This document shows positions 5,923 to 44,715 of a stretch of 64,000 bases of DNA, in pieces (positions within the stretch are counted from its first letter, which is position 1; every line of letters starts with the position of its first letter). A model generated the notes under the pieces. The model saw nothing but the letters and a program-made list of their open reading frames with translations, made no database searches and had not been told where the DNA came from. The DNA is from Escherichia coli (GTDB taxonomy: Bacteria; Pseudomonadota; Gammaproteobacteria; Enterobacterales; Enterobacteriaceae): assembly GCF_044324785.1 (NCBI RefSeq), contig NZ_CP172127.1, one strand, 5' to 3'. The translations under genes were made by a program, and so were the position numbers.

Positions 5923-5941
5923 GCGTTAAGTCAGTCGTCAG

Positions 5942-5967
5942 ACGCCGGTTAATCCGGCGTTTTTTTT
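5942..5967 (+). terminator. intrinsic terminator of fadD
   Basis: ACGCCGG-TTAAT-CCGGCGT stem-loop followed by T8, 20 bp after the fadD stop. Confidence 0.8.
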
Positions 5968-5991
5968 GACGCCCACTAAAGAGAATACAAT

Positions 5992-7119: not shown

Positions 7120-7125
7120 AATCTT

Positions 7126-7168
7126 CCGAAGCCGGACTGGGCGCGCTCAGCGCCACATCCGGCTTCGG
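7126..7168. terminator. long palindromic hairpin between convergent rnd and yeaX
   Basis: CCGAAGCCGGA...TCCGGCTTCGG 11-bp stem with an inner GGCGC/GCGCC stem; lies between the two stop codons. Confidence 0.5.
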
Positions 7169-7172
7169 CAAA

Positions 7173-10960: not shown

Positions 10961-11165
10961 GAGTCATCTCCTGGGCATAAAAGCCCGTCTCTGGCTTTTG
11001 CCAGTTGTAATTATTTGCAGGGTAATGAGTTGTATGTTGTGTTTAACAAATTGATTATTTGCATGTTACATAAATTAAACAATTAAGAATACGGAAAGCC
11101 ATAAAACACGAAACGGAAACAATAAAAGGTGAAATGACGCAGGTTATTAACTGCAAAGAACGAAT

Positions 11166-14259: not shown

Positions 14260-14619
14260 ATGCTGCAAATCCCACAGAATTATATTCATACGCGCTCAAC
14301 GCCTTTCTGGAATAAACAAACTGCGCCTGCCGGAATATTCGAACGTCATCTTGATAAAGGAACGCGCCCGGGAGTTTACCCACGCCTTTCCGTTATGCAT
14401 GGGGCGGTCAAATATCTCGGCTACCCTGATGAACACAGTGCAGAGCCTGATCAAGTGATCCTTATCGAAGCGGGGCAGTTTGCGGTGTTCCCTCCAGAAA
14501 AGTGGCACAACATTGAAGCCATGACTGACGATACTTATTTCAACATTGACTTCTTCGTTGCCCCTGAAGTCCTGATGGAAGGTGCGCAACAACGGAAAGT
14601 CATTCATAACGGGAAATGA
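14260..14619 (+). CDS. yeaR: DUF1971 protein YeaR
   Basis: 119-aa ORF; 3-nt gap to yoaG suggests an operon. Confidence 0.85.
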   Translation: MLQIPQNYIHTRSTPFWNKQTAPAGIFERHLDKGTRPGVYPRLSVMHGAVKYLGYPDEHSAEPDQVILIEAGQFAVFPPEKWHNIEAMTDDTYFNIDFFVAPEVLMEGAQQRKVIHNGK

Positions 14620-14622
14620 ATC

Positions 14623-14805
14623 ATGGGCAAAGCAACGTATACCGTGACCGTCACCAATAACAGCAATGGCGTTTCTGTCGATTATGAAACAGAGACGCCG
14701 ATGACTTTGCTGGTGCCAGAAGTGGCGGCTGAAGTGATAAAAGATCTGGTGAATACCGTGCGTTCTTATGACACGGAAAACGAACATGATGTTTGTGGTT
14801 GGTAA
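14623..14805 (+). CDS. yoaG: DUF1869 small protein YoaG
   Basis: 60-aa ORF MGKATYTVTVTNNSNG immediately after yeaR. Confidence 0.8.
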   Translation: MGKATYTVTVTNNSNGVSVDYETETPMTLLVPEVAAEVIKDLVNTVRSYDTENEHDVCGW

Positions 14806-14952
14806 TTATCTCTGATCGTTGATGGCGCAATTTCTGCGCCATCGCAAAAAAATCCTCCGTGATGCTCGTCACAAATTTTGCCCTCCCGATGTTGTGCTAT
14901 GCTTTTTATCAGCGACTAACCCGCTAATGCAAAACAGATAAGTGAGGAAACA

Positions 14953-15201
14953 ATGGGCATTCTGTCATGGATTATTTTTGGGCTTATTGCCGGTATTCTG
15001 GCGAAGTGGATCATGCCAGGTAAAGATGGTGGTGGATTCTTTATGACTATCCTGCTGGGGATAGTCGGTGCCGTAGTCGGCGGATGGATCAGCACGCTGT
15101 TTGGCTTTGGTAAAGTCGATGGCTTCAATTTTGGCAGCTTCGTGGTTGCCGTTATTGGCGCGATTGTCGTGCTGTTTATCTACAGAAAGATTAAAAGTTA
15201 A
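14953..15201 (+). CDS. yeaQ: GlsB/YeaQ/YmgE-family small membrane protein
   Basis: 82-aa glycine-rich two-TM ORF MGILSWIIFGLIAGILAKW. Confidence 0.85.
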   Translation: MGILSWIIFGLIAGILAKWIMPGKDGGGFFMTILLGIVGAVVGGWISTLFGFGKVDGFNFGSFVVAVIGAIVVLFIYRKIKS

Positions 15202-15214
15202 CGTTTAAATTGCA

Positions 15215-15249
15215 CAAAGGCTGCACACAGGCAGCCTTTGCTATTTTCT
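15215..15249. terminator. terminator hairpin after yeaQ
   Basis: CAAAGGCTGC-ACACAG-GCAGCCTTTG 10-bp perfect stem followed by CTATTTTCT; lies between the yeaQ stop and the yoaJ stop. Confidence 0.7.
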
Positions 15250-15259
15250 AGATGTGACG

Positions 15260-15334
15260 TTACCACCATCCCAGCTCAGTGCCGAGTACGACAATAATCG
15301 CCACACCCATCATAATAATCGTTGTTTTTTTCAT
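15260..15334 (-). CDS. yoaJ: small membrane protein YoaJ (24 aa)
   Basis: Direct reverse-complement reading gives MKKTTIIMMGVAIIVVLGTELGWW then stop; below the ORF-track size cutoff. Confidence 0.75.
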   Translation of the reverse strand: MKKTTIIMMGVAIIVVLGTELGWW

Positions 15335-15336
15335 CT

Positions 15337-15435
15337 TTATGCTCCCGGGGCAGCATAGCCGCCAATAAAAAACCATGCTAAAAATACGACCGCTGTAATA
15401 AAGATTACAACCGGAAAAATAATACCGATTCGCAT
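15337..15435 (-). CDS. yoaK: small membrane protein YoaK (32 aa)
   Basis: Direct reading gives MRIGIIFPVVIFITAVVFLAWFFIGGYAAPGA then stop; ends 2 nt before the yoaJ start. Confidence 0.75.
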   Translation of the reverse strand: MRIGIIFPVVIFITAVVFLAWFFIGGYAAPGA

Positions 15436-15467
15436 GTTATCACCAATCAAAAGGATGTGAATACGCC

Positions 15468-16493
15468 TCAGGAATGTAGCGCTGGATGCGCGACAAAAGG
15501 GGTTTTCTGTTTGTGTTTTTTCTCCTGATACATCGCGATATCGGCAGCATGCAGGGCACTGTCTGCATCGGTCGTTTCAGGATCGACTTCTACTATGCCA
15601 AGACTGGCACCGGGATAATACAAATCAACATCACCTAAGTGATATTCTCCACGTATTTGCTGTTGAATACGTTCTCGCAGCGACGAAATATCCGCATTCT
15701 CGTTGTTCAGTGAAACAACCAAAAACTCATCACCGCCGAGACGACCAATAACTTCGCCATTTTGCTGGAGCGTATTAAGGCGCTCGCCAACCTGAATGAG
15801 GAACAAATCACCACTATTATGACCAAAACGATCGTTGATTAATTTGAAGTTATCCAGATCGATAAACGCGATCATTATCTTATGGTTAAGATGTCGGGCG
15901 AGAGAAAACAGCGTCGTCAGGTTTTCAAAAATCGCCCGCCGATTCGGTAGCCCGGTTAACGAGTCGGTATACGATTGCGCAATCAGCGCAGCATTGGCTT
16001 CGCGCAGCTGTTCTACCAGCGCCTCTTTTTGAATATATTGTGCAATCAGTCCGGCGAATAACTGCAAAACCTGTTCCGCGCGTTCACTCCACTGGCGCTT
16101 CTCACTACTGGCGGCGCAAAGCGTGCCATAGAATGATCCATCCGGTAAGTGAATTGGCGTGCTCAGAAATGTGGTGATGCCAAGATTGCGTGCCGCAATA
16201 CAGTCGCCCCAACGGTCAGGGACTTCATCGCTGAAAAAGCAGTTTTCATCAATGGCGCGTTTGCATAACGAGTAATCCCACGAGACGGTAAAATTCTCCG
16301 GGATGTGCATTTTCTGGCTGTTACGGGCAAACATAATATGCTGCAGGCGCGCTTCGACATCCACTTTGGTCAGGTAGGTTGATTCCATATCAGTGACCAT
16401 TTCCAGCATCTCCAGAAGCTGTCGGACCAGGCTTTCCAGTGACTGTTCTTTGGCAAGGGATTGCGAGACGCGGGCGATAATCTGATCTGACAC
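15468..16493 (-). CDS. dgcP: diguanylate cyclase DgcP (YeaP), GAF-GGDEF
   Basis: GGDEF motif RLGGDEF with I-site-like RxxD context; GTG start at 16493 gives the 341-aa product; track ORF extended upstream. Confidence 0.85.
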   Translation of the reverse strand: MSDQIIARVSQSLAKEQSLESLVRQLLEMLEMVTDMESTYLTKVDVEARLQHIMFARNSQKMHIPENFTVSWDYSLCKRAIDENCFFSDEVPDRWGDCIAARNLGITTFLSTPIHLPDGSFYGTLCAASSEKRQWSERAEQVLQLFAGLIAQYIQKEALVEQLREANAALIAQSYTDSLTGLPNRRAIFENLTTLFSLARHLNHKIMIAFIDLDNFKLINDRFGHNSGDLFLIQVGERLNTLQQNGEVIGRLGGDEFLVVSLNNENADISSLRERIQQQIRGEYHLGDVDLYYPGASLGIVEVDPETTDADSALHAADIAMYQEKKHKQKTPFVAHPALHS

Positions 16494-29476: not shown

Positions 29477-30361
29477 TTAACGTTTGGCAACGCGAATGGA
29501 TTGCGCCAGATGTGCAGGTTTTTCTTTGGTGACTTTTTGCGTTTCTGAAGCGTAAGCCGTTTCTACACAAACAAAGGTCTTGTAGCCATCGTCCGGCATG
29601 TCGCCCATGCTAACTGAAAGCGCCGGTCCCGGATTCCAGCCTACAACGTTCAGATGATGCTGGTGACCTACGGCGATAATACGATTCAGCGCTTCATCAT
29701 TAATCACGCTGCAATCTTGCGGATTCAGATACACGCGATCGGTACGGTCAGGGAAGGTCTGAATACCGTCGGTCAGTACATCTTCTTTCGCGTCATTCAC
29801 TTTATCAATGAAGCGATCGCCCAGCCCACTGACGCTTACCTTAGCGATATCACCCACGTTAAAGTAGGTATGCAGGGCAGAGGTGGTTTCAAATTCGCCA
29901 TGTGATTCAAGATCGATTTCACAGGTTTTACCCACGCGGAAATGCGCTAACAGCGTAAAGTCGTGCGGCCAGAATTTTTTCGTCTCTTCGCTTTGCGTCA
30001 ATTCAAAAGTCAGCGCTACGCCATCAGCATCTTCATGATGTGATTTCAGCGTCCACGGCAGGTTGCGGGCAAAACCGTGCGCAGGCAGGCCTTGTTGTGC
30101 AGCCGGACCAAACCACGGCCAGCAAACCGGTACGCCACCGCGAATAGCGACGCCATTTTTGAACGGTGTGTTATTGCTCAACCACAGAACTTCTTCTTCA
30201 CCCGCAGGTTTCCATGAGAGAAGGTGTGCGCCCTGTAATGCAAAAGAGGCTTTTACCTGGGGATGATCGACCACAATGAGGTCCAGTTCATCCAGTTTAC
30301 GACGGGAGAGGACAGGGGAGATTTGTTCGATGACCGGAAGGGCAAAAATTTTCTTAATCAT
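29477..30361 (-). CDS. yeaD: aldose-1-epimerase-family protein (glucose-6-phosphate 1-epimerase) YeaD
   Basis: 294-aa product from ATG 30361 (MIKKIFALPVIEQ); track ORF carries 7 extra codons. Confidence 0.85.
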   Translation of the reverse strand: MIKKIFALPVIEQISPVLSRRKLDELDLIVVDHPQVKASFALQGAHLLSWKPAGEEEVLWLSNNTPFKNGVAIRGGVPVCWPWFGPAAQQGLPAHGFARNLPWTLKSHHEDADGVALTFELTQSEETKKFWPHDFTLLAHFRVGKTCEIDLESHGEFETTSALHTYFNVGDIAKVSVSGLGDRFIDKVNDAKEDVLTDGIQTFPDRTDRVYLNPQDCSVINDEALNRIIAVGHQHHLNVVGWNPGPALSVSMGDMPDDGYKTFVCVETAYASETQKVTKEKPAHLAQSIRVAKR

Positions 30362-30392
30362 GACGCAGTCCTTTAACTTCATTTTATCAGGT

Positions 30393-30423
30393 AAAAAAAA
30401 GAGCGACCGAAGTCGCTCTTTTT
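30393..30423. terminator. bidirectional intrinsic terminator (gapA / yeaD)
   Basis: A8-GAGCGAC-CGAA-GTCGCTC-T5; on the minus strand the stem is followed by a U-tract 21 nt after the gapA stop. Confidence 0.8.
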
Positions 30424-30444
30424 AGATCACAGTGTCATCTCAAC

Positions 30445-31452
<1,008 letters not shown>

Positions 31453-31647
31453 CTATTTGTTAGTGAATAAAAGGTTGCCTGTAAAATTACAAAAACCTTA
31501 CGCAGCGTCAAGCGGAATCGTGTCAATCATTGCGACAAATCAATCCTGTGCCTAAGCATTACGCGACTGACTCGCCTCACTCTTCCTTTGGGCTTGAGAC
31601 CACATGGGGTCGGCGTCCCGAATTTTAAAGGGCAATTACGATAAAAA

Positions 31648-31663
31648 TGTGATTTTCATCACG
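31648..31663. promoter_or_regulatory. CRP-like binding site in the gapA-msrB divergent region
   Basis: TGTGATTTTCATCACG matches TGTGA-N6-TCACA at 9 of 10 half-site positions. Confidence 0.5.
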
Positions 31664-31781
31664 ATTTAGGTGCAGCCATTTCGTCGAGATCAAGTTTAGG
31701 ACAAATTTTTGCCAGTTGGTGTTAATGTTTTGTTAGAATCAGTCGCGTAATGTGAGCACGATTAAAGTGAGATGTGAGCAA

Positions 31782-32195
31782 ATGGCTAATAAACCTTCGG
31801 CAGAAGAACTGAAAAAAAATTTGTCCGAGATGCAGTTCTACGTGACGCAGAATCATGGGACAGAGCCGCCATTTACGGGTCGTTTACTGCATAACAAGCG
31901 TGACGGCGTATATCACTGTTTGATCTGCGATGCCCCGCTGTTTCATTCCCAAACCAAGTATGATTCCGGCTGTGGCTGGCCCAGTTTCTACGAACCGGTG
32001 AGTGAAGAATCCATTCGTTATATCAAAGACTTGTCACATGGAATGCAGCGCATAGAAATTCGTTGCGGTAACTGTGATGCCCATCTGGGGCATGTCTTCC
32101 CCGACGGGCCGCAGCCAACGGGCGAACGTTATTGTGTTAACTCTGCCTCTTTACGCTTTACCGATGGCGAAAACGGCGAAGAAATCAACGGTTGA
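31782..32195 (+). CDS. msrB: methionine-R-sulfoxide reductase MsrB
   Basis: 137 aa from ATG 31782; two CxxC zinc motifs (CLICDAP, CGNCDAH) and catalytic RYCVNSASL. Confidence 0.9.
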
Positions 32196-32236
32196 AAAAA
32201 CGATTCAGCAACTTATTCCACAGGAGCGGAAAAATT

Positions 32237-32509
32237 ATGAATCTTGATGACATTATCAACAGCATGACGCCTGAGGTATACCAGCGTTTGTCAACAGCCG
32301 TTGAACTGGGTAAGTGGCCAGATGGCGTTGCGCTGACCGAGGAACAAAAAGAGAACTGCCTGCAACTGGTGATGCTGTGGCAAGCCCGCCATAATACCGA
32401 AGCTCAGCATATGACAATTGACACAAATGGTCAGATGGTTATGAAGAGCAAACAACAGTTAAAAGAAGATTTTGGTATCTCAGCAAAGCCTATTGCCATG
32501 TTTAAGTAA
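32237..32509 (+). CDS. yeaC: DUF1315 protein YeaC
   Basis: 90-aa product MNLDDIINSMTPEVYQRL; overlaps the msrB end region, suggesting an operon. Confidence 0.8.
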   Translation: MNLDDIINSMTPEVYQRLSTAVELGKWPDGVALTEEQKENCLQLVMLWQARHNTEAQHMTIDTNGQMVMKSKQQLKEDFGISAKPIAMFK

Positions 32510-32878
32510 GTGGTTTATCCCCTTTTTGCCGCGATTATAAAGGGGATATCCAACAATAACCCCACGACTCATCTCAATTATCTCGTCACGACCAGGCAAA
32601 GCCCCAGCCCGGTCTCTTGCAGTCGCGTTCACGCCTGAATGACTTCTCCTGAACTTAAGTCTCAGACCTATTTGGCCGGTAATCCCTCTCAAATTTGCTC
32701 ATTTTGCGTTCCGCCTTCCATCAACCTGTAACAGATCCAGCCATTTTCTGCGTAATTGTGATCTCAGTTGTAAAACGCAGATCATTATCTGTGTTTTGCA
32801 GATTTAATGTTGACCTCAAAAATCATGTGGGTAAGTATGATGACCATCTAAGCAAAACAAAACACAGAGGATGACGCA

Positions 32879-33955
32879 ATGAAAGCACTGGCTCGGTTTG
32901 GCAAAGCCTTTGGCGGCTACAAGATGATCGATGTGCCACAACCCATTTGTGGCCCGGAAGATGTAGTGATTGAAATTAAAGCCGCGGCAATCTGCGGCGC
33001 AGACATGAAGCACTACAATGTCGATAGCGGTTCTGATGAGTTTAACTCTATCCGCGGCCATGAGTTCGCAGGTTGTATTACGCAGGTTGGTGAAAAAGTC
33101 AAAGACTGGAAAGTGGGGCAACGCGTCGTGTCGGATAACAGCGGTCACGTCTGCGGCGTTTGTCCGGCCTGTGAACAAGGTGATTTTCTGTGTTGTACAG
33201 AAAAAGTAAACCTTGGTCTGGATAACAATACCTGGGGCGGTGGTTTTTCCAAATATTGTCTGGTTCCTGGCGAAATTCTCAAAATTCATCGTCATGCGTT
33301 GTGGGAAATCCCTGATGGTGTTGATTATGAGGACGCAGCCGTACTTGACCCTATCTGTAATGCCTACAAATCCATCGCGCAGCAATCGAAATTCCTTCCT
33401 GGTCAGGATGTGGTCGTCATCGGCACTGGCCCACTCGGGCTGTTCTCCGTACAAATGGCGCGGATTATGGGGGCGGTAAATATCGTCGTCGTTGGTCTGC
33501 AAGAAGATGTGGCGGTCCGCTTTCCGGTTGCAAAAGAACTGGGTGCGACGGCTGTAGTAAATGGTTCTACCGAAGATGTGGTGGCGCGCTGCCAGCAAAT
33601 TTGTGGCAAAGACAATCTGGGACTGGTGATTGAATGCTCCGGTGCCAATATCGCACTGAAACAAGCCATCGAAATGCTCCGCCCGAACGGGGAAGTGGTA
33701 CGCGTTGGAATGGGCTTCAAACCTCTTGATTTCTCGATTAATGACATTACCGCCTGGAACAAAAGCATCATTGGGCATATGGCCTATGACTCCACCTCAT
33801 GGCGTAACGCTCTCCGGCTATTAGCCAGCGGCGCTATCAAAGTCAAACCGATGATCACGCATCGTATCGGCCTGTCGCAATGGCGCGAAGGGTTTGAAGC
33901 GATGGTCGATAAAACCGCAATCAAAGTGATCATGACTTACGACTTTGATGAATAA
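32879..33955 (+). CDS. ydjL: zinc-dependent MDR-family alcohol/polyol dehydrogenase YdjL
   Basis: 358 aa; catalytic Zn motif GHEFAG and structural Zn Cys cluster CGVCPACEQGDFLCC. Confidence 0.85.
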   Translation: MKALARFGKAFGGYKMIDVPQPICGPEDVVIEIKAAAICGADMKHYNVDSGSDEFNSIRGHEFAGCITQVGEKVKDWKVGQRVVSDNSGHVCGVCPACEQGDFLCCTEKVNLGLDNNTWGGGFSKYCLVPGEILKIHRHALWEIPDGVDYEDAAVLDPICNAYKSIAQQSKFLPGQDVVVIGTGPLGLFSVQMARIMGAVNIVVVGLQEDVAVRFPVAKELGATAVVNGSTEDVVARCQQICGKDNLGLVIECSGANIALKQAIEMLRPNGEVVRVGMGFKPLDFSINDITAWNKSIIGHMAYDSTSWRNALRLLASGAIKVKPMITHRIGLSQWREGFEAMVDKTAIKVIMTYDFDE

Positions 33956-33981
33956 CTACTCTCCTGAAGGAACGTTATCGC

Positions 33982-35361
33982 ATGGAACAGATAACAAAAC
34001 CGCATTGTGGTGCACGGCTGGATCGCTTACCGGATTGCCGCTGGCATTCGTCAATGTTTGCTATCGTCGCGTTTGGCTTGCTTGTCTGCTGGAGTAATGC
34101 CGTTGGTGGCTTGATCCTCGCGCAGCTGAAAGAGTTGGGCTGGACAGATAATTCCACCACTGCCACATTCTCAGCAATCACGACCGCCGGAATGTTTCTC
34201 GGTGCGCTGGTTGGCGGCATCATCGGTGACAAAACCGGTCGCAGAAATGCGTTCATCCTCTATGAGGCCATTCATATTGCCTCGATGGTGGTCGGTGCTT
34301 TTTCACCGAATATGGATTTCCTTATTGCCTGCCGTTTTGTGATGGGCGTTGGGCTGGGAGCTTTACTGGTGACGCTGTTTGCTGGGTTCACCGAATATAT
34401 GCCCGGTAGAAATCGCGGAACGTGGTCCAGTCGGGTTTCCTTTATTGGCAACTGGTCATATCCGCTCTGTTCATTGATTGCGATGGGACTCACGCCGCTG
34501 ATTAGTGCTGAGTGGAACTGGCGGGTACAACTGCTTATCCCTGCAATATTGTCGCTTATCGCTACGGCGCTGGCCTGGCGCTACTTTCCTGAATCCCCGC
34601 GCTGGCTGGAATCGCGCGGACGGTATCAGGAAGCCGAGAAAGTCATGCGGAGTATAGAAGAAGGCGTCATACGCCAGACGGGTAAACCTTTGCCGCCCGT
34701 GGTTATTGCTGATGACGGTAAAGCGCCACAAGCGGTGCCGTATTCAGCCTTACTGACAGGCGTATTACTGAAACGCGTGATATTAGGTTCTTGTGTGCTG
34801 ATTGCCATGAACGTTGTGCAGTACACACTAATTAACTGGTTGCCAACGATATTCATGACCCAGGGGATTAATTTAAAAGACTCGATTGTTTTAAATACCA
34901 TGAGTATGTTTGGCGCGCCATTTGGTATTTTTATTGCCATGCTGGTGATGGATAAAATTCCGCGTAAAACAATGGGTGTGGGGCTATTAATCCTGATTGC
35001 GGTGCTCGGATATATCTATTCACTGCAAACCAGTATGTTGCTCATAACGTTGATTGGTTTCTTCCTGATTACTTTCGTCTATATGTACGTTTGCTATGCC
35101 TCGGCAGTGTATGTCCCTGAAATCTGGCCGACAGAGGCCAAACTCCGTGGCTCCGGTCTGGCGAATGCGGTAGGGCGAATCAGTGGTATTGCCGCACCTT
35201 ATGCCGTTGCAGTGCTGCTCAGTAGTTATGGCGTAACGGGAGTCTTTATTCTTCTGGGGGCGGTTTCAATTATTGTCGCAATTGCTATCGCCACCATTGG
35301 AATTGAAACCAAAGGTGTCTCCGTTGAAAGTTTAAGTATTGATGCAGTAGTCAATAAATAA
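33982..35361 (+). CDS. ydjK: MFS sugar/metabolite transporter YdjK
   Basis: 459-aa 12-TM ORF with MFS motif GDKTGRR between TM2 and TM3. Confidence 0.85.
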   Translation: MEQITKPHCGARLDRLPDCRWHSSMFAIVAFGLLVCWSNAVGGLILAQLKELGWTDNSTTATFSAITTAGMFLGALVGGIIGDKTGRRNAFILYEAIHIASMVVGAFSPNMDFLIACRFVMGVGLGALLVTLFAGFTEYMPGRNRGTWSSRVSFIGNWSYPLCSLIAMGLTPLISAEWNWRVQLLIPAILSLIATALAWRYFPESPRWLESRGRYQEAEKVMRSIEEGVIRQTGKPLPPVVIADDGKAPQAVPYSALLTGVLLKRVILGSCVLIAMNVVQYTLINWLPTIFMTQGINLKDSIVLNTMSMFGAPFGIFIAMLVMDKIPRKTMGVGLLILIAVLGYIYSLQTSMLLITLIGFFLITFVYMYVCYASAVYVPEIWPTEAKLRGSGLANAVGRISGIAAPYAVAVLLSSYGVTGVFILLGAVSIIVAIAIATIGIETKGVSVESLSIDAVVNK

Positions 35362-35377
35362 TACTGGTGGATTCAAA

Positions 35378-36421
35378 ATGAAAAATTCAAAAGCAATATT
35401 GCAGGTGCCGGGCACAATGAAAATTATTTCAGCAGAAATACCTGTGCCTAAAGAAGATGAAGTTTTGATTAAAGTGGAATATGTCGGTATTTGTGGTTCA
35501 GATGTACATGGTTTTGAATCAGGCCCGTTTATTCCGCCTAAAGACCCAAATCAAGAAATTGGCCTGGGACATGAATGCGCCGGGACGGTTGTGGCTGTGG
35601 GAAGCCGTGTGCGCAAATTTAAAGCGGGGGATCGGGTAAATATCGAACCTGGCGTTCCTTGCGGTCACTGTCGTTACTGTCTGGAAGGCAAATATAACAT
35701 CTGCCCGGACGTTGATTTTATGGCGACACAACCTAACTACCGCGGCGCATTAACGCACTATCTGTGTCATCCGGAGAGCTTTACTTACAAACTGCCCGAC
35801 AATATGGACACGATGGAAGGGGCGCTGGTGGAGCCTGCCGCAGTCGGGATGCATGCCGCGATGCTGGCAGATGTTAAACCGGGTAAGAAGATAATTATTC
35901 TGGGAGCGGGTTGTATTGGTTTGATGACGTTGCAAGCGTGCAAATGCCTGGGAGCAACGGAAATTGCCGTCGTTGATGTACTGGAAAAACGTCTGGCAAT
36001 GGCGGAACAGCTTGGTGCGACAGTGGTTATTAACGGCGCAAAAGAAGACACTATTGCACGCTGTCAGCAATTTACCGAAGACATGGGCGAAGATATTGTT
36101 TTCGAAACAGCGGGTTCTGCGGTCACCGTTAAACAGGCACCTTATCTGGTAATGCGCGGCGGTAAAATTATGATTGTTGGTACTGTACCGGGCGATTCGG
36201 CAATCAATTTCCTCAAAATCAATCGCGAAGTCACTATCCAGACAGTATTCCGCTATGCCAATCGTTATCCGGTCACGATTGAAGCTATTTCCACAGGGCG
36301 ATTCGATGTGAAATCGATGGTGACACATATTTACGATTATCAGGATGTACAACAGGCATTTGAAGAGTCGGTTAACAACAAACGCGACATTATTAAAGGC
36401 GTTATTAAAATTAGCGATTAA
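35378..36421 (+). CDS. ydjJ: zinc-dependent MDR-family dehydrogenase YdjJ
   Basis: 347 aa; GHECAG and CGHCRYC zinc motifs; Rossmann GAGCIG. Confidence 0.85.
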   Translation: MKNSKAILQVPGTMKIISAEIPVPKEDEVLIKVEYVGICGSDVHGFESGPFIPPKDPNQEIGLGHECAGTVVAVGSRVRKFKAGDRVNIEPGVPCGHCRYCLEGKYNICPDVDFMATQPNYRGALTHYLCHPESFTYKLPDNMDTMEGALVEPAAVGMHAAMLADVKPGKKIIILGAGCIGLMTLQACKCLGATEIAVVDVLEKRLAMAEQLGATVVINGAKEDTIARCQQFTEDMGEDIVFETAGSAVTVKQAPYLVMRGGKIMIVGTVPGDSAINFLKINREVTIQTVFRYANRYPVTIEAISTGRFDVKSMVTHIYDYQDVQQAFEESVNNKRDIIKGVIKISD

Positions 36422-36441
36422 TTAATACGGGAGAACAGAAT

Positions 36442-37278
36442 ATGCTCGCAGATATCAGATATTGGGAAAACGATGCCACAAATAAACATTATGCAATTGC
36501 CCATTTTAACGTATGGAATGCAGAAATGTTGATGGGCGTTATCGACGCAGCCGAAGAAGCGAAATCACCGGTTATTATTTCTTTTGGTACAGGTTTTGTC
36601 GGCAACACCTCATTTGAAGATTTCTCTCACATGATGGTATCAATGGCACAAAAAGCAACGGTGCCGGTAATAACTCATTGGGATCATGGTCGGAGTATGG
36701 AGATTATTCATAACGCCTGGACTCATGGTATGAATTCATTAATGCGTGATGCTTCCGCGTTTGATTTCGAAGAAAATATTCGTTTAACCAAAGAGGCTGT
36801 TGATTTTTTCCATCCGCTGGGTATTCCGGTAGAGGCGGAATTAGGGCATGTCGGTAATGAAACCGTTTATGAGGAAGCTCTGGCGGGCTATCACTATACC
36901 GATCCTGACCAGGCGGCTGAATTTGTTGAACGTACGGGCTGTGACTCATTGGCTGTCGCCATCGGCAACCAGCATGGGGTTTATACGTCAGAGCCACAAT
37001 TGAACTTTGAGGTCGTCAAACGCGTACGCGATGCCGTTTCTGTTCCGCTGGTTTTGCACGGTGCATCGGGGATCAGTGATGCCGACATTAAAACTGCAAT
37101 TTCGTTGGGTATCGCGAAAATCAACATTCATACGGAGCTCTGTCAGGCCGCAATGGTAACAGTGAAAGAAAACCAGGATCAGCCTTTCCTGCATTTAGAA
37201 CGTGAAGTACGTAAAGCTGTAAAAGAACGGGCATTGGAAAAAATTAAACTGTTCGGTTCTGATGGCAAAGCGGAATAA
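36442..37278 (+). CDS. ydjI: class II (metal-dependent) aldolase YdjI
   Basis: 278-aa ORF with class II fructose-bisphosphate/tagatose-bisphosphate aldolase family features. Confidence 0.8.
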   Translation: MLADIRYWENDATNKHYAIAHFNVWNAEMLMGVIDAAEEAKSPVIISFGTGFVGNTSFEDFSHMMVSMAQKATVPVITHWDHGRSMEIIHNAWTHGMNSLMRDASAFDFEENIRLTKEAVDFFHPLGIPVEAELGHVGNETVYEEALAGYHYTDPDQAAEFVERTGCDSLAVAIGNQHGVYTSEPQLNFEVVKRVRDAVSVPLVLHGASGISDADIKTAISLGIAKINIHTELCQAAMVTVKENQDQPFLHLEREVRKAVKERALEKIKLFGSDGKAE

Positions 37279-37282
37279 TGAT

Positions 37283-38230
37283 ATGGATAATCTCGACGTT
37301 ATTTGTATAGGTGCCGCTATTGTTGATATTCCATTGCAACCGGTCAGTAAAAATATCTTTGATGTGGATTCTTATCCTCTTGAAAGAATCGCAATGACCA
37401 CCGGGGGTGATGCAATAAATGAAGCAACAATTATTTCTCGTCTGGGCCATCGCACAGCATTAATGAGTCGTATTGGTAAAGATGCCGCCGGGCAATTTAT
37501 TCTCGACCATTGCCGCAAAGAGAATATTGATATTCAAAACCTGAAGCAGGACGTCAGCATAGATACCTCTATTAACGTTGGACTGGTGACGGAGGATGGC
37601 GAGCGGACGTTTGTTACAAACCGTAACGGCAGTCTGTGGAAATTGAATATTGACGATGTTGATTTTTCGCGGTTTTCTCAGGCGAAATTATTATCACTGG
37701 CCAGTATTTTCAACAGTCCTCTATTGGATGGTAAAGCGCTAACAGAAATTTTTACGCAAGCTAAAGCCCGGCAGATGATTATCTGTGCCGATATGATCAA
37801 ACCGCGGTTGAATGAAACGCTGGATGATATTTGCGAAGCATTGAGTTATGTCGATTATCTGTTTCCTAATTTTGCCGAGGCAAAATTACTCACCGGGAAA
37901 GAGACACTGGATGAAATTGCTGACTGCTTTCTTGCGTGCGGCGTAAAAACGGTGGTGATTAAAACGGGTAAAGACGGCTGCTTTATCAAGCGTGGTGACA
38001 TGACGATGAAGGTGCCGGCGGTCGCAGGAATAACCGCCATCGACACTATTGGCGCAGGCGATAACTTTGCTTCTGGCTTTATAGCGGCTCTGTTAGAAGG
38101 CAAAAATCTGCGTGAATGCGCACGCTTTGCCAATGCAACGGCTGCTATTTCGGTTTTAAGCGTCGGTGCCACCACCGGTGTAAAAAACAGAAAGCTGGTC
38201 GAACAATTGCTGGAAGAATACGAAGGATAA
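37283..38230 (+). CDS. ydjH: PfkB-family sugar kinase YdjH
   Basis: 315 aa from ATG 37283; ribokinase-family motif DTIGAGDNFASGF. Confidence 0.85.
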   Translation: MDNLDVICIGAAIVDIPLQPVSKNIFDVDSYPLERIAMTTGGDAINEATIISRLGHRTALMSRIGKDAAGQFILDHCRKENIDIQNLKQDVSIDTSINVGLVTEDGERTFVTNRNGSLWKLNIDDVDFSRFSQAKLLSLASIFNSPLLDGKALTEIFTQAKARQMIICADMIKPRLNETLDDICEALSYVDYLFPNFAEAKLLTGKETLDEIADCFLACGVKTVVIKTGKDGCFIKRGDMTMKVPAVAGITAIDTIGAGDNFASGFIAALLEGKNLRECARFANATAAISVLSVGATTGVKNRKLVEQLLEEYEG

Positions 38231-38239
38231 TGAAGGCAA

Positions 38240-39220
38240 ATGAAAAAGATACCTTTAGGCACAACGGATATAACGCTTTCGCGAATGGGGTTGGGGACAT
38301 GGGCCATTGGCGGCGGTCCTGCATGGAATGGCGATCTCGATCGGCAAATATGTATTGATACGATTCTTGAAGCCCATCGTTGCGGCATTAACCTGATTGA
38401 TACTGCGCCAGGATATAACTTTGGCAATAGTGAAGTTATCGTCGGTCAGGCGTTAAAAAAACTGCCCCGTGAACAGGTTGTAGTAGAAACCAAATGCGGC
38501 ATTGTCTGGGAACGAAAAGGGAGTTTATTCAACAAAGTTGGCGATCGGCAGTTGTATAAAAACCTTTCCCCGGAATCTATCCGCGAAGAGGTAGAAGCCA
38601 GCTTGCAACGTCTGGGTATTGATTACATCGATATCTACATGACGCACTGGCAGTCGGTGCCGCCATTTTTTACGCCGATCGCTGAAACTGTCGCAGTGCT
38701 CAATGAGTTAAAGGCCGAAGGGAAAATTCGCGCTATCGGCGCTGCTAACGTCGATGCTGACCATATCCGCGAGTATCTGCAATATGGTGAACTGGATATT
38801 ATTCAGGCGAAATACAGTATCCTCGACCGGGCAATGGAAAGCGAACTGCTGCCGCTATGTCGTGATAATGGCATTGTGGTTCAGGTTTATTCCCCGCTAG
38901 AGCAGGGATTGTTGACCGGTACCATCACTCGTGATTACGTTCCGGGCGGCGCTCGGGCAAATAAAGTCTGGTTCCAGCGTGAAAACATGCTGAAAGTGAT
39001 TGATATGCTTGAACAGTGGCAGCCACTCTGTGCTCGTTATCAGTGCACAATTCCCACTCTGGCACTGGCGTGGATATTAAAACAGAGTGATTTAATCTCC
39101 ATTCTTAGTGGGGCTACTGCACCGGAACAGGTACGCGAAAATGTCGCGGCATTGAATATCAACTTATCGGATGCAGACGCAACATTGATGAGGGAAATGG
39201 CAGAGGCCCTGGAGCGTTAA
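38240..39220 (+). CDS. ydjG: aldo-keto reductase YdjG
   Basis: 326-aa AKR-fold ORF 10 nt after ydjH. Confidence 0.85.
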   Translation: MKKIPLGTTDITLSRMGLGTWAIGGGPAWNGDLDRQICIDTILEAHRCGINLIDTAPGYNFGNSEVIVGQALKKLPREQVVVETKCGIVWERKGSLFNKVGDRQLYKNLSPESIREEVEASLQRLGIDYIDIYMTHWQSVPPFFTPIAETVAVLNELKAEGKIRAIGAANVDADHIREYLQYGELDIIQAKYSILDRAMESELLPLCRDNGIVVQVYSPLEQGLLTGTITRDYVPGGARANKVWFQRENMLKVIDMLEQWQPLCARYQCTIPTLALAWILKQSDLISILSGATAPEQVRENVAALNINLSDADATLMREMAEALER

Positions 39221-39246
39221 ATACTCAACACGATTCACCTCTGTTT

Positions 39247-39274
39247 CTGTGAAAACTGTGATGAAAATCTGTGA
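39247..39274. promoter_or_regulatory. three direct CTGTGA repeats upstream of ydjF (candidate operator)
   Basis: CTGTGA at 39247, 39256 and 39269, with a fourth TGTGAT at 39327; about 85 bp before the ydjF GTG start. Confidence 0.35.
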
Positions 39275-39356
39275 TTCAAACAGGTTATTTTGAAAGTAAA
39301 CATCGGTTATGCGATAATCGCGCTAATGTGATGTAAAAAGATACAGGGGTGTAATC

Positions 39357-40115
39357 GTGGCGGCAAAAGACAGGATTCAGGCAATTAAGCAAATGGTTGC
39401 CAACGATAAAAAGGTGACAGTCTCAAATTTGAGTGGGATTTTTCAAGTAACCGAAGAAACCATTCGCCGCGATCTTGAGAAGCTGGAAGATGAAGGCTTT
39501 TTGACCAGAACCTATGGTGGTGCTGTTTTAAATACAGCGATGTTGACGGAGAATATCCATTTTTATAAGCGCGCTTCATCGTTTTATGAAGAGAAGCAGC
39601 TTATTGCACGCAAGGCACTACCCTTTATCGACAATAAAACCACTATGGCAGCCGATTCCAGTAGTACCGTTATGGAATTGCTCAAATTGTTGCAGGACCG
39701 TAGTGACCTGACGTTGCTAACCAACTCGGCGGAAGCGATTCATGTTCTGGCTCAATCAGAAATTAAAGTCGTTTCAACGGGGGGGGAACTAAACAAAAAT
39801 ACACTTTCCCTGCAAGGAAGAATTACTAAAGAGATCATCAGCCGCTACCATGTCGATATCATGGTAATGAGTTGTAAAGGTCTTGATATTAACAGCGGCG
39901 CGCTGGACTCTAACGAAGCGGAAGCTGAAATCAAAAAGACAATGATCCGTCAGGCGACAGAAGTTGCGTTATTGGTTGATCACTCTAAGTTTGATCGCAA
40001 AGCTTTTGTCCAGTTAGCTGACTTTAGTCATATTAATTACATAATAACTGATAAATCACCGGGTGCAGAGTGGATAGCATTTTGCAAAGACAATAATATC
40101 CAGCTGGTGTGGTAA
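39357..40115 (+). CDS. ydjF: DeoR-family transcriptional regulator YdjF
   Basis: 252 aa; GTG start; N-terminal HTH and C-terminal DeoR sugar-binding domain. Confidence 0.85.
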   Translation: MAAKDRIQAIKQMVANDKKVTVSNLSGIFQVTEETIRRDLEKLEDEGFLTRTYGGAVLNTAMLTENIHFYKRASSFYEEKQLIARKALPFIDNKTTMAADSSSTVMELLKLLQDRSDLTLLTNSAEAIHVLAQSEIKVVSTGGELNKNTLSLQGRITKEIISRYHVDIMVMSCKGLDINSGALDSNEAEAEIKKTMIRQATEVALLVDHSKFDRKAFVQLADFSHINYIITDKSPGAEWIAFCKDNNIQLVW

Positions 40116-40231
40116 TTTAAGCACACGTTGTCAATATTATTTGTTCCTGCGCCTGGAAATAAAATGATGATAAAGATGCGGCAAGTGAATTTGCCGCAAT
40201 TGCTACCTTTTTAGCAAATCCGAGGCACCTA

Positions 40232-41510
40232 ATGGAACAATATGATCAAATTGGCGCAAGACTGGACCGCTTGCCTTTGGCCCGGTTTCATTATCGTATA
40301 TTTGGTATTATAAGCTTTAGTCTGTTATTAACGGGTTTTTTGAGTTATTCAGGCAATGTTGTTTTAGCAAAGCTGGTAAGCAATGGATGGTCAAATAATT
40401 TCCTCAATGCCGCCTTTACCTCGGCATTAATGTTTGGTTATTTCATCGGCTCTCTTACCGGTGGGTTCATCGGTGATTATTTTGGGCGGCGCAGGGCTTT
40501 TCGCATAAATCTTCTCATCGTCGGTATTGCGGCAACAGGGGCCGCTTTTGTCCCTGATATGTACTGGCTCATCTTCTTTCGCTTCCTGATGGGCACAGGA
40601 ATGGGGGCGCTGATTATGGTTGGCTATGCTTCGTTTACGGAGTTTATCCCCGCGACGGTGCGTGGAAAATGGTCCGCGCGGCTCTCATTTGTCGGTAACT
40701 GGTCGCCCATGTTGTCTGCGGCGATAGGCGTGGTGGTTATCGCTTTTTTTAGTTGGCGGATAATGTTTCTGCTGGGTGGTATTGGCATACTGTTAGCCTG
40801 GTTTCTCTCAGGTAAATACTTTATTGAGTCGCCTCGATGGTTGGCGGGGAAAGGACAAATCGCAGGTGCAGAAAGCCAACTTCGTGAAGTAGAGCAGCAA
40901 ATTGAAAGAGAGAAGAGTGTTCGTTTACCCCCGCTTACTTTGAATCAGAGCAACAGCAAGGCTAACATAATCAATGGTACTTTCTGGCTGCTGTTTAAAG
41001 GGAAAATGTTACGACGTACATTAGTCGCGATTACTGTTTTAATTGCAATGAACATTTCACTTTATACCATCACCGTATGGATACCGACCATATTTGTTAA
41101 CTCCGGCATTGATGTCGATAAATCAATATTAATGACTGCTGTTATTATGATTGGTGCTCCGGTAGGAATATTTATTGCGGCATTAATTATTGATCATTTT
41201 CCTCGTCGATTATTTGGCTCCGCCTTACTTATTATTATTGCCGTGTTAGGCTATATCTATTCAATTCAGACTACAGAGTGGGCGATTTTAATCTATGGCC
41301 TGGTGATGATCTTCTTTTTATACATGTATGTTTGCTTCGCGTCGGCGGTTTATATCCCGGAGCTTTGGCCAACGCATTTACGCCTGCGCGGTTCAGGTTT
41401 CGTTAATGCCGTCGGACGGATCGTCGCGGTCTTCACGCCTTATGGCGTTGCGGCACTATTAACGCATTATGGGTCAATCACGGTGTTTATAGTGCTTGGC
41501 GTGATGTTAG

Positions 41511-41533
<23 letters not shown>
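40232..41533 (+). pseudogene. ydjE: MFS transporter ydjE, 3'-truncated by IS5 insertion
   Basis: Reading frame enters IS5 at codon 427 and ends after 7 IS-encoded residues (GKVRTSP); the displaced final 26 codons continue in frame at 42706..42789. Confidence 0.75.
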
Positions 41534-42705
<1,172 letters not shown>

Positions 42706-42789
42706 TTAGTGCTCTGTGCGCTGGTTCTCTCCATTTTTGGCATCGAAACGCGGAAGGTGTCATTGGAAGAGATTTCTGAGGTGAATTAA
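42706..42789 (+). other. ydjE: displaced 3' remnant of ydjE (last 26 codons plus stop)
   Basis: Joining 41510 to 42710 restores an in-frame MFS C-terminus ...VMLVLCALVLSIFGIETRKVSLEEISEVN, total 452 aa. Confidence 0.7.
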
Positions 42790-42839
42790 ATCTTTCGTTG
42801 ATGGCGTCAATTGCCAGAGGTACCACTGACGTGTTTTAT

Positions 42840-42874
42840 CTGGCCTACAATGGCAGTACAGAATTGTAGGCCAG
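42840..42874. repeat. REP-like palindrome between ydjE and pncA
   Basis: CTGGCCTACAAT...ATTGTAGGCCAG perfect 12-bp stem with 11-nt loop, 8 nt before the pncA stop. Confidence 0.5.
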
Positions 42875-42881
42875 CATAAAA

Positions 42882-43523
42882 TTACTCCTGCGTCTCTTCC
42901 CAGTCTGCCAGCGTATATAGCGTTGCCCCAGCTGCTGACATCTCCATAAACGCGTGCGCACTGTCCTGGGGCTGGATATTCACGCCACGACAACCATCGG
43001 TAATCACGTTTACCTTATAACCTAACTGTAACGCGTCCAGCACGGTAAACTTCACGCAATAGTCAGTAGCCAGGCCCATAACGATCAATTCATCGATTTC
43101 ATGATCGCGTAACCAGTCATCGAGAGAGGTTTTCTGCCGACGGCCGTTATCAAAAAAGGCACTGTAACTGTCAACTAAAAGATTTTCGCCTTTATGGAAC
43201 ACCGCTGCGATCGCTTTTTGGTTCAGTAACGGATGTAATTGTGCGCCTTCACTGTTCTGCACACAGTGATCTGGCCAGAAGGTTTGTGGCAAACCGTCGA
43301 GTTGGCCTGGCGTATAAGGCTCTACACCGTGCTGACTGGCAAAACTGCCGTGATTCGCCGGGTGCCAGTCCTGACTGGCGATAACCGCTTCACCGCGCGA
43401 CTGGCACCAGTCAATCAGGCGGTTAGCGACATCCACCGTACTGTCACCTTCCGGCACGGCGAGCGCGCCACCAGCACAGAAATCATTTTGTAAATCGACC
43501 AGTAACAGGGCGCGAGGGGGCAT
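42882..43523 (-). CDS. pncA: nicotinamidase/pyrazinamidase PncA
   Basis: 213-aa product MPPRALLLVDLQNDF from ATG 43523; isochorismatase-like fold. Confidence 0.9.
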   Translation of the reverse strand: MPPRALLLVDLQNDFCAGGALAVPEGDSTVDVANRLIDWCQSRGEAVIASQDWHPANHGSFASQHGVEPYTPGQLDGLPQTFWPDHCVQNSEGAQLHPLLNQKAIAAVFHKGENLLVDSYSAFFDNGRRQKTSLDDWLRDHEIDELIVMGLATDYCVKFTVLDALQLGYKVNVITDGCRGVNIQPQDSAHAFMEMSAAGATLYTLADWEETQE

Positions 43524-43533
43524 TGCAGTCTCC

Positions 43534-44550
43534 TTAATCATCCGGCGTCAGTTCGCCGCGCAGGTTTTGGCTCATGGCCTTGCGAATGGTTTCAGTATCC
43601 AGTTCCTGGCTAAGCAGGTAATGCAGTTTGGTTAGCGTGGCTTCTACAGTCATATCTGCACCGCCAATAACGCCGGCATGGGCGAGGGCGTTACCAGTGG
43701 CATACCCCCCCATGTTCACTTTACCGGACATACATTGTGTCAGGTTGACCACCACAATACCGCGATCGCTGGCTTCTTGTAATTCCTGCAGGAAGGCTTT
43801 GTTTTGTGGCGCATTACCCACGCCATATGAGCGCAGAATCAATGCTTTCACCGGTTGGCGCAGAAAATTGCGCACGACGTCAGCAGAAATCCCCGGATAA
43901 ATCGTCACTACGCCAATTGGTTGTGGCGTGATTGGATGAACGATCAATTCCCCTTCACCGTGCGGGGCGGGTGGCGTATTCAAACGACGAATATGGATAC
44001 CTGCTTCCAGTAACGGAGGAAGGTTTGGAGAGGCAAACGCATCAAAACCATCGGCATGGGCTTTGGTAGTGCGGTTGCCGCGATACAATCGGTTATTGAA
44101 AAAGAGCGTTACTTCGTTGATCGGATAATTCGCCGCAACGTACAACGCATTCAGCAGATTAATTTGTCCGTCAGAGCGTAACTCAGCCAGCGGGATTTGT
44201 GACCCTGTCACAATGACCGGTTTACCGAGATTCTCGAGCATGAACGACAGTGCAGAGGCGGTATACGCCATCGTGTCGGTGCCGTGCAGAATGACAAAAC
44301 CATCATAGTCGTCATAGTGCGCTTTAATATCTTCAGCAATATGCTGCCAGTCTTCTGGCGTCATATCAGAAGAATCCATCAGCGGCGTATATTCATGAAT
44401 GGTGAAATCTGGCATCTCCGGGCGATGGAATTCCGGCATCAGCGCCAGTTGGCGTTGTAGATGACCTGACACCGGAATATAACCCTGCTCGGAACGCTGC
44501 ATCCCGATGGTCCCGCCCGTGTAGGCGACGTAAATTGATTTCTTTTGCAT
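43534..44550 (-). CDS. ansA: cytoplasmic L-asparaginase I
   Basis: 338 aa from ATG 44550; asparaginase motif VAYTGGTIGM; 10-nt gap to pncA. Confidence 0.9.
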   Translation of the reverse strand: MQKKSIYVAYTGGTIGMQRSEQGYIPVSGHLQRQLALMPEFHRPEMPDFTIHEYTPLMDSSDMTPEDWQHIAEDIKAHYDDYDGFVILHGTDTMAYTASALSFMLENLGKPVIVTGSQIPLAELRSDGQINLLNALYVAANYPINEVTLFFNNRLYRGNRTTKAHADGFDAFASPNLPPLLEAGIHIRRLNTPPAPHGEGELIVHPITPQPIGVVTIYPGISADVVRNFLRQPVKALILRSYGVGNAPQNKAFLQELQEASDRGIVVVNLTQCMSGKVNMGGYATGNALAHAGVIGGADMTVEATLTKLHYLLSQELDTETIRKAMSQNLRGELTPDD

Positions 44551-44715
44551 GATATTGATATGAATGATATCGAAAGAGCAAAAGTATATACGTGAGGCAG
44601 GGGGAGCGCACCTGATACTATGCGGATAAGGAAATATGGGGCGAGACAGCGGGAAGAGGATTCGTAGAGGTAAAAATAATGTGGCCGACGATCTGTCGGC
44701 CAATCAGTACAAGAC

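Follow-up and report, generated by a model that had tools for sequence, protein, structure and literature searches.

The window, as we refer to the whole stretch of DNA analysed here, comprises 64,000 nucleotides of the Escherichia coli contig NZ_CP172127.1 and carries the ydj gene cluster at 32879-41533. According to the open reading frame (ORF) list, ydjL, ydjK, ydjJ, ydjI, ydjH, ydjG, ydjF and ydjE all lie there on the plus strand; for the region 30000-45000 the list gives eight plus-strand frames in a row followed by a frame of 338 amino acids (aa) at 41543-42559. The eight genes sit on one strand between yeaC and pncA, with msrB-yeaC flanking one side and pncA-ansA the other, in the order and orientation of annotated E. 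coli records, and the whole window is collinear with MG1655 (1893983->1831408) at around 98% DNA identity, with two structural differences only. An earlier interpretation made from the letters alone (hereafter, the sequence-only reading) had called an eight-gene cluster at this place, and the ORF list, the annotated records and the collinearity with MG1655 all bear it out. The locus is the known chromosomal ydjLKJIHG-ydjF-ydjE of E. coli, already described and in itself ordinary, and it shares with the K-12 cluster (b1776-b1769) the genes, their order, orientation and flanks, and around 98% nucleotide identity. It differs from the K-12 cluster by an IS5 in ydjE after codon 426 and by a YdjE allele that departs from K-12 at residues 215-258; beyond the IS5, the cluster has no further structural differences. 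Its G+C content is 46.8%, compared with 49.8% for the whole window, and a megablast of 32000-43000 finds a near-full-length copy in 4,220 of the 5,426 complete E. coli genomes that formed our comparison set. Seven of the eight genes are intact, as listed here.

32879-33955, plus strand: ydjL, Zn-dependent medium-chain dehydrogenase, threonine/sorbitol dehydrogenase-like, intact, 4 amino-acid differences from K-12
33982-35361, plus strand: ydjK, MFS transporter, intact and full length, 45% identical to YdjE
35378-36421, plus strand: ydjJ, Zn-dependent polyol dehydrogenase, sorbitol dehydrogenase/ketose reductase-like, intact, 4 amino-acid differences from K-12
36442-37278, plus strand: ydjI, class II ketose-phosphate aldolase, intact, 1 amino-acid difference from K-12
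37283-38230, plus strand: ydjH, PfkB-family sugar kinase, intact, 2 amino-acid differences from K-12
38240-39220, plus strand: ydjG, aldo-keto reductase, NADH-dependent methylglyoxal reductase in vitro, intact
39357-40115, plus strand: ydjF, DeoR/GlpR-family regulator with a GTG start, intact, 2 amino-acid differences from K-12

In a codon-level comparison with MG1655, the seven genes from ydjL to ydjF show equal lengths, zero internal stops and zero frameshifts, with 8-23 nucleotide and 1-4 amino-acid differences each. Their ratio of nonsynonymous to synonymous change (dN/dS) versus K-12 is 0.03-0.10, and thus the seven core genes are under strong purifying selection. The reading frames are not intact throughout the cluster, as IS5 cuts ydjE short after the first 426 of its 452 codons. 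For ydjH the ORF list offers an alternative upstream ATG at 37262; RefSeq and PDB 3H49 back the start at 37283. An Rfam scan placed no RNA family within the cluster. Several enterobacterial genera have the cluster at this same place, between yeaC and pncA, and its acquisition was therefore old.

The sequence-only reading had assigned two Zn-dependent dehydrogenases, two MFS transporters, a class II aldolase, a PfkB kinase, an aldo-keto reductase and a DeoR regulator, and profile and PDB matches uphold each of these families and, with them, every element of the proposed architecture of transport, oxidation/reduction, phosphorylation and aldol cleavage. In particular, YdjL finds its nearest PDB entries among L-threonine 3-dehydrogenases (133-149 bits, with similarity over the full length) and stays below the cut-offs of all specific NCBIfam equivalogs, while YdjJ matches PDB 5VM2 at 772 bits, followed by ketose reductase and sorbitol dehydrogenase at 226-256 bits; both proteins fall below the Tdh, IdnD, GatD and IolM equivalog cut-offs. 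YdjK and YdjE match the Sugar_tr profile. YdjI passes TIGR00167 (323.7 bits versus a cut-off of 215.6), is essentially identical to PDB 6OFU, 'YdjI aldolase' (624 bits over residues 1-278), and lies below the GatY/KbaY and FbaA equivalog cut-offs (e.g., 224 versus 443.55 bits for TIGR01858 and 246 versus 343 for TIGR01859). YdjH matches PDB 3H49/3IN1 at 684 bits and is a full-length PfkB protein (Pfam PF00294, 247.8 bits, residues 5-300) that remains below the ribokinase, IolC, fructokinase and KDG kinase equivalog cut-offs, the best being TIGR04382 with 141.9 bits versus 300. Solved crystal structures are available for YdjI, YdjH and YdjJ. YdjG scores above the cut-off of the equivalog NF049922, an NADH-dependent methylglyoxal reductase (628 bits versus 550), and YdjF shows the domain make-up of DeoR/GlpR regulators, namely HTH_DeoR (PF08220, 61.7 bits) and DeoRC (PF00455, 167.2 bits). 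The ydj enzymes do not reach the cut-offs for GatY/KbaY, FbaA, ribokinase, IolC, Tdh, IdnD and GatD; they belong to the same families but have their own specificity.

The eighth gene is split into the following parts, listed together with a hairpin that precedes it.

40177-40198, no strand assigned: GC-rich hairpin between ydjF and ydjE (terminator scan)
40232-41510, plus strand: 5' part of ydjE, codons 1-426 of 452; the frame continues into IS5 up to a stop at 41531-41533 and adds GKVRTSP
41511-42705, plus strand: complete IS5 of 1195 bp, with its transposase gene at 41579-42559, oriented like ydjE
42710-42789, plus strand: 3' remnant of ydjE, codons 427-452 and the stop codon

Disruption of ydjE by IS5 had been noticed in the sequence-only reading, and the element boundaries, the terminal repeats and the target duplication confirm it. 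TTAG stands on both sides of the element (41507-41510 and 42706-42709), the left junction reading ...GTGATG TTAG and then GGAAGGTGCGAACAAG, the right one CTTATTCGCACCTTCC and then TTAG TGCTC... The two 16-bp terminal inverted repeats differ at one position only (15 of 16 match), the copy is 99.8% identical to annotated IS5, and the DDE transposase of 326 aa passes NF033581 (365.7 bits versus a cut-off of 140). The element has the properties of other IS5 insertions, i.e., a length of about 1195 bp, 16-bp terminal inverted repeats, a 4-bp YTAR duplication (TTAG here) and an NF033581 transposase. When IS5 and one TTAG copy are removed by joining 40232-41510 to 42710-42789, a 452-aa ORF collinear with K-12 YdjE is restored. 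The cut halves the final helix of YdjE (residues 418-436), which is also its most hydrophobic one; the final 26 residues are replaced by GKVRTSP, and the MFS_1 and Sugar_tr profile matches (Pfam) stop at residue 425-426. Position 41533 is the stop codon of the truncated frame inside IS5, and the native 3' remnant lies beyond the range that the sequence-only reading gave to the cluster. IS5 thus most likely inactivates the accessory transporter YdjE, with the core of seven genes intact. This loss probably leaves the core pathway working, since the ydjE slot is variable across genomes and the candidate operator described below is absent upstream of ydjE.

The ydjE::IS5 junction does not occur in any of the 5,426 complete genomes, which makes it a private event, and the idea that this exact site is an insertion hotspot, or that the insertion is shared by a lineage, was dropped on the same count. 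The sole full-length match in the junction search was strain A10, which carries instead an IS5 in the ydjF-ydjE spacer (locus L002, 10216-11410), at a TTAG around 20 nt before the ydjE start, again with a private junction. Strain 1008S19 has an IS5-family insertion inside ydjH and strain PI12 an ISKpn26 at the ydjJ 3' end, the insertion coordinates in loci of other isolates being about 5958-7132 (L086) and about 4605-5840 (L087). As these independent insertions of IS5-family elements show, the cluster is sporadically lost, yet it is under purifying selection where intact. Activation of a neighbouring gene by IS5 was rejected: pncA, downstream, is convergent, so that no neighbour is placed for activation and the effect would be a simple truncation, unlike at bgl, fucAO, glpFK and flhDC, where IS5 insertions activate.

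Separately from the insertion, 9 of the 12 amino-acid differences between this YdjE and that of K-12 crowd into the central cytoplasmic loop, residues 215-258 (window 40874-41005). As the allele without the IS is 99.8% identical to the alleles of many strains, these differences are allelic variation and not decay.

The regions upstream of ydjL and ydjF contain the following putative control elements.

32757-32772, plus strand: CRP-like site TGTGATCTCAGTTGTA, with a good match in the left half TGTGA only
32773-32805, plus strand: candidate YdjF operator site 1, palindromic AAACGCAGATCATTATCTGTGTTTTGCAGATTT, ending 4 nt upstream of the -35
32810-32838, plus strand: putative ydjL promoter, -35 TTGACC (32810-32815), 17-nt spacer, -10 AAGTAT (32833-32838)
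32860-32868, plus strand: third candidate half-site, AAACACAGA, adjoining the ydjL ribosome-binding site
39245-39318, plus strand: ydjF control region, half-sites TTCTGTG (39245) and ATCTGTG (39267), then TTGAAA-17-GATAAT (39290-39318) with a TG extension

The centre of the CRP-like site is located around 80 nt upstream of the putative ydjL transcription start, and the block TGTGATCT at this site is conserved in the Enterobacterales alignment; when a full CRP site was sought upstream of ydjL, the left half alone was convincing. Site 1 contains the half-sites AAACGCAGA at 32773 and TCTGTGTTT at 32788. A terminator scan flagged 32768-32801 as a terminator-like hairpin, a label that we rejected in favour of a palindromic candidate operator, since the segment lies upstream of a conserved -35 and contains sequence words kept across phyla. 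Indeed, the alignment of Enterobacterales ydjL upstream regions contains the conserved block TTTGTGATCTnAGTTGTGAAAtGCAGATCattATCTGTGTTTTaAAGATTTnnTGTTGACCTCAAAGATTTTGTGGtTAAGTAT, and Firmicutes have AATCTTTGAAACACAGAAAAnnAATTGACAnnAACAAAGATTT at the same place. The words common to both groups are A(A/T)ACA(C/A)AGA and AAAGATTT; in most genera they flank on both sides the -35 TTGAC(C/A), which is itself kept in Enterobacterales and Firmicutes.

Within 150 nt upstream of ydjL the half-site is enriched around 80-fold in enterics and around 20-fold in other lineages, and a shorter 7-mer form is enriched 18-fold upstream of enteric ydjF, figures that are not to be read as probabilities; neither form is enriched upstream of ydjE or ydjK, where the half-site was sought and is absent. 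The 8-mers AACACAGA, AAACACAG and AAAGATTT, learned from non-enteric sequences only, recur in 67-81% of enteric ydjL upstream regions, compared with roughly 1-3% of background 200-nt windows, and the first two are present in this window; this check, with training on Firmicutes and testing on enterics, agrees with the enrichment. The A(A/T)ACA(C/A)AGA half-sites are therefore presented here as candidate YdjF operators. Upstream of ydjF, the promoter-like TTGAAA-17-GATAAT scores 10 of 12 matches in the promoter scan, and the half-sites ahead of it suggest that YdjF may also regulate itself. A further half-site lies between the -35 and -10 of ydjL (window 32816-32832); it reads CAAAGATTT in other enterobacterial genera and Lachnospiraceae and CAAAAATCA here. 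Because of this degeneracy in Escherichia, YdjF may control ydjL less tightly in E. coli.

The distribution of the cluster outside E. coli was followed with YdjI as the query and one genome per species, which yielded 80 loci. The identity of YdjI amounts to 91-99% within Enterobacterales and to 73-87% in Lachnospiraceae, Oscillospiraceae, Clostridium, Veillonella, Megamonas, Anaerococcus, Erysipelotrichaceae, Atopobiaceae, Synergistaceae and bee-gut Gilliamella, and nearly all genomes with such relatives are gut or host-associated. In the 80 genomes, which include Enterobacterales, Gilliamella, Lachnospiraceae, Veillonella, Megamonas, Anaerococcus, Atopobiaceae and Synergistaceae, L, J, I, H, G and F are kept together in order, in these arrangements.

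Enterobacterales: L-K-J-I-H-G-F-E
Lachnospiraceae and several others: L-(AlsE-like ketose-phosphate 3-epimerase)-K-J-I-H-G-F-(SDF/DAACS symporter)
Group without ydjK: L-J-I-H/G-F, then a LivHMGF-type ABC system
Veillonella: E-L-K-J-I-H-G-F

The second transporter is thus the MFS protein YdjE, an SDF/DAACS dicarboxylate-type symporter (29 loci; Pfam SDF, 270 bits) or a LivHMGF-type ABC system (12 loci), so that ydjE occupies a variable slot outside the conserved core cassette. As the alternative occupants belong to carboxylate and amino-acid transporter families, the slot fits a carboxylate-bearing substrate, in agreement with the in vitro preference reported below. The AlsE-like 3-epimerase is found between ydjL and ydjK in 25 non-enteric loci (NF007266, 257 bits versus a cut-off of 271) and is missing from the enterobacterial cassettes.

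Several features of these loci are of interest in their own right. The SDF/DAACS symporter follows ydjF outside Enterobacterales and stands between ydjG and ydjF in Erysipelotrichaceae. In Schaedlerella arabinosiphila (Lachnospiraceae; locus L043), the coordinates 6479-7174 and 14464-15810 are listed for the AlsE-like epimerase and the SDF/DAACS symporter. Beside cassettes without ydjK recur an aminotransferase, an RraA-like aldolase/decarboxylase, a LysR regulator, PxpABC (5-oxoprolinase-type) and a D-2-hydroxyacid dehydrogenase, in varying order and orientation (L056, 12846-20640; also L047, L060, L070, L077, L078 and L080); in L056 a glutamate-dehydrogenase-like gene adjoins this set as well. 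The linkage of this neighbour set to the ydjK-less cassettes is suggestive. In one Lachnospiraceae genome (L025, 107-4790) the main cassette is immediately preceded by another set of genes, divergent and incomplete, in which the PfkB kinase shows 41% identity, the aldo-keto reductase 32% and the two Zn-dependent dehydrogenases 50% and 26%.

As for the published record, the MG1655 RefSeq entry names YdjH 'L-glycero-L-galacto-octuluronate kinase' and YdjI 'L-glycero-L-galacto-octuluronate-1-phosphate aldolase', and PMC9602453 cites Huddleston & Raushel (Biochemistry 2019) for a preference of the two enzymes for long-chain monosaccharides with a carboxylate terminus. The sequence-only reading had named higher-carbon 2-keto sugars for the kinase and aldolase, which agrees with these product names and with what PMC9602453 relates. 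The best in vitro substrate is described in PMC9602453 as having no known natural abundance. The same paper reports a low prevalence of the cluster in phylogroup B1. In culture the ydjL promoter is inactive, but it is turned on during passage through the mouse gut, the YdjG protein is raised in the caecum, and YdjG reduces methylglyoxal (PMC6561318). The in vitro kinase, aldolase and reductase activities to which we refer are taken from these sources (PMC9602453, PMC6561318, RefSeq and NF049922). On the side of regulation, ydjLKJIHG is listed as predicted Crp-activated (PMC8085971), Rho-dependent attenuation occurs in the ydjL 5' region (bioRxiv 10.1101/2020.07.18.207399), and YdjF is among the uncharacterised DeoR-family regulators (PMC4797297). 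In a serum metabolomics screen, YdjE mutants alter the export of acetophenone and 3-phenyllactate (PMC10971958). The sequence-only reading had also called the natural inducer unclear; in line with this, our full-text literature search returned no paper naming a physiological substrate, an inducer or the YdjF regulon.

Collectively, we read the locus, with a probability of roughly 80%, as a module dedicated to the catabolism of one carbohydrate, most likely a polyol or 2-ketose with a terminal carboxylate, which YdjF and CRP would control and in which IS5 has hit the accessory transporter YdjE. The substrate would be taken up by an MFS transporter, YdjK being the conserved one and YdjE its 45%-identical paralogue in the variable slot, and would then be oxidized to a 2-ketose by the sorbitol-dehydrogenase-like YdjJ and/or the threonine-dehydrogenase-like YdjL. 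YdjH would phosphorylate the C1 hydroxyl of the 2-ketose, YdjI would cleave the resulting ketose-1-phosphate into dihydroxyacetone phosphate (DHAP) and an aldehyde-acid, and the latter would be reduced by YdjG or by one of the dehydrogenases. YdjF would repress the ydjL promoter, and probably its own, through the A(A/T)ACA(C/A)AGA half-sites just ahead of the -35 and beside the ribosome-binding site, while CRP would activate the ydjL promoter. DeoR-family repressors are usually released by a phosphorylated intermediate, and such an intermediate may be the inducer that releases YdjF.

A similar logic is present in the L-fucose and L-rhamnose pathways (FucK/FucA/FucO and RhaB/RhaD), where a 2-ketose is phosphorylated by a C1 kinase and split by a class II aldolase into DHAP and an aldehyde on which an oxidoreductase acts; FucR is likewise a DeoR-type regulator and responds to a ketose-1-phosphate. 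In contrast to those pathways, the ydj kinase is of the PfkB and not the FGGY type, the aldolase belongs to the FBP/TBP-aldolase and not the FucA/RhaD family, and two upstream polyol dehydrogenases take the place of the isomerase. The galactitol, D-altritol and D-tagatose pathways (the gat operon and the Agrobacterium altritol-galactitol route) share with the ydj cluster Zn-dependent polyol dehydrogenases, a PfkB kinase, a GatY/KbaY-family class II aldolase and a DeoR regulator (GatR). However, YdjI, YdjH, YdjJ and YdjL remain below the NCBIfam cut-offs for GatY/KbaY, tagatose kinases and GatD, uptake relies on MFS transporters instead of a phosphotransferase system, and the in vitro preference, as reported, is for C7-C9 uronate-type ketoses.

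Several points weigh against the carboxylate-bearing module that we favour. The best in vitro substrate has no known natural source in the account of PMC9602453, and thus another compound may be the true substrate. Only one half of the CRP-like site is a good match, and YdjE, lacking only its last 26 residues, might retain some activity. The half-site motif was first noticed in these same sequences, which are related and hence not independent, and it is for this reason that its enrichment figures are no probabilities. Finally, the AlsE-like 3-epimerase of the 25 non-enteric cassettes fits a distal-phosphate neutral ketose better than a C1-phosphorylated uronate.

This last point leads to the main rival, which we regard as rather unlikely and according to which a neutral hexitol or ketohexose, of the type of allitol, D-allulose or sorbitol, serves as natural substrate and the octuluronate activities are promiscuous side reactions. 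The route would then run through oxidation by YdjJ/YdjL, phosphorylation by YdjH and epimerisation, followed by cleavage or glycolysis. Besides the epimerase, the closeness of YdjJ to sorbitol dehydrogenase and ketose reductase and the Sugar_tr matches of YdjK and YdjE are consistent with such a route. However, the kinase and aldolase prefer, according to the same published account, sugars of 7-9 carbons with a carboxylate end, the alternative second transporters are of acid and amino-acid types (SDF, LivHMGF) and not of sugar types, and the enterobacterial cassettes contain no epimerase.

It is more improbable still that the cluster is, in E. coli, a silent and decaying remnant, with the IS5 in ydjE as one step of its loss. 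Around 22% of the complete genomes lack a near-full-length copy (4220/5426 have one), the prevalence in phylogroup B1 is low (PMC9602453), independent IS5-family insertions affect ydjH, ydjJ and the ydjF-ydjE spacer in other isolates, and transcription is subject to the reported Rho-dependent attenuation in the ydjL 5' region, all of which a decaying cluster would explain. Yet the dN/dS values of 0.03-0.10 extend over all seven core genes, these genes are here free of frameshifts and stop codons, the chromosomal position is conserved across Enterobacteriaceae genera, the ydjL promoter is active in the mouse gut (PMC6561318), and every IS junction tested is private to one genome. That the cluster mainly detoxifies methylglyoxal and other reactive aldehydes, with YdjG and the two dehydrogenases as the working parts, was raised by the authors of PMC6561318 as a possible reason for gut expression and suits YdjG as an NADH-dependent methylglyoxal reductase (NF049922), but it is very improbable, as it leaves unexplained the strict cross-phylum synteny of kinase, aldolase, two transporters and a DeoR regulator of the sugar-phosphate type, and as E. 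coli has other methylglyoxal reductases, with yeaE just upstream in the same region.

Elsewhere in the window, 224 bp at 10833-11056 are absent from MG1655 and present in 2,930 of the 5,426 complete E. coli genomes. This segment holds the 5' end of yeaV (minus-strand ORF 9350-10960), which here encodes 536 aa versus the 481 aa annotated in K-12; K-12 thus has a deletion that takes away the native yeaV start and the region upstream of it. The sole Rfam match in the window that reaches its gathering score is the small RNA sroD (5881-5966, plus strand, 115 bits), far upstream of the ydj cluster.

Among the 'orphan' carbohydrate clusters of E. coli, the ydj genes belong to the better studied, and their presence in an E. 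coli window is expected. The ydjE::IS5 insertion, the sole strain-specific feature of the cluster, is a strain marker of little wider significance. What the present analysis adds is the cross-phylum L-J-I-H-G-F synteny, the variable ydjE slot and a candidate YdjF half-site, which narrow the question of the natural substrate without answering it. Since the ydjL promoter shows activity in the mouse gut and none under laboratory conditions, and since the cassette is common to many gut Firmicutes, the substrate probably belongs to the metabolites of the gut and is of general ecological relevance. More tentatively, and at somewhat less than even odds, the cassette, including its promoter and operator layout, could be a module that has spread horizontally among gut-associated bacteria of several phyla and that degrades a carboxylate-bearing polyol or ketose common in animal guts, the private IS5 hits indicating that it is dispensable outside this niche. 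If this is true, the interchangeable second transporter, the AlsE-like epimerase of Firmicutes and the conserved YdjF half-sites would all represent handles for finding the compound.

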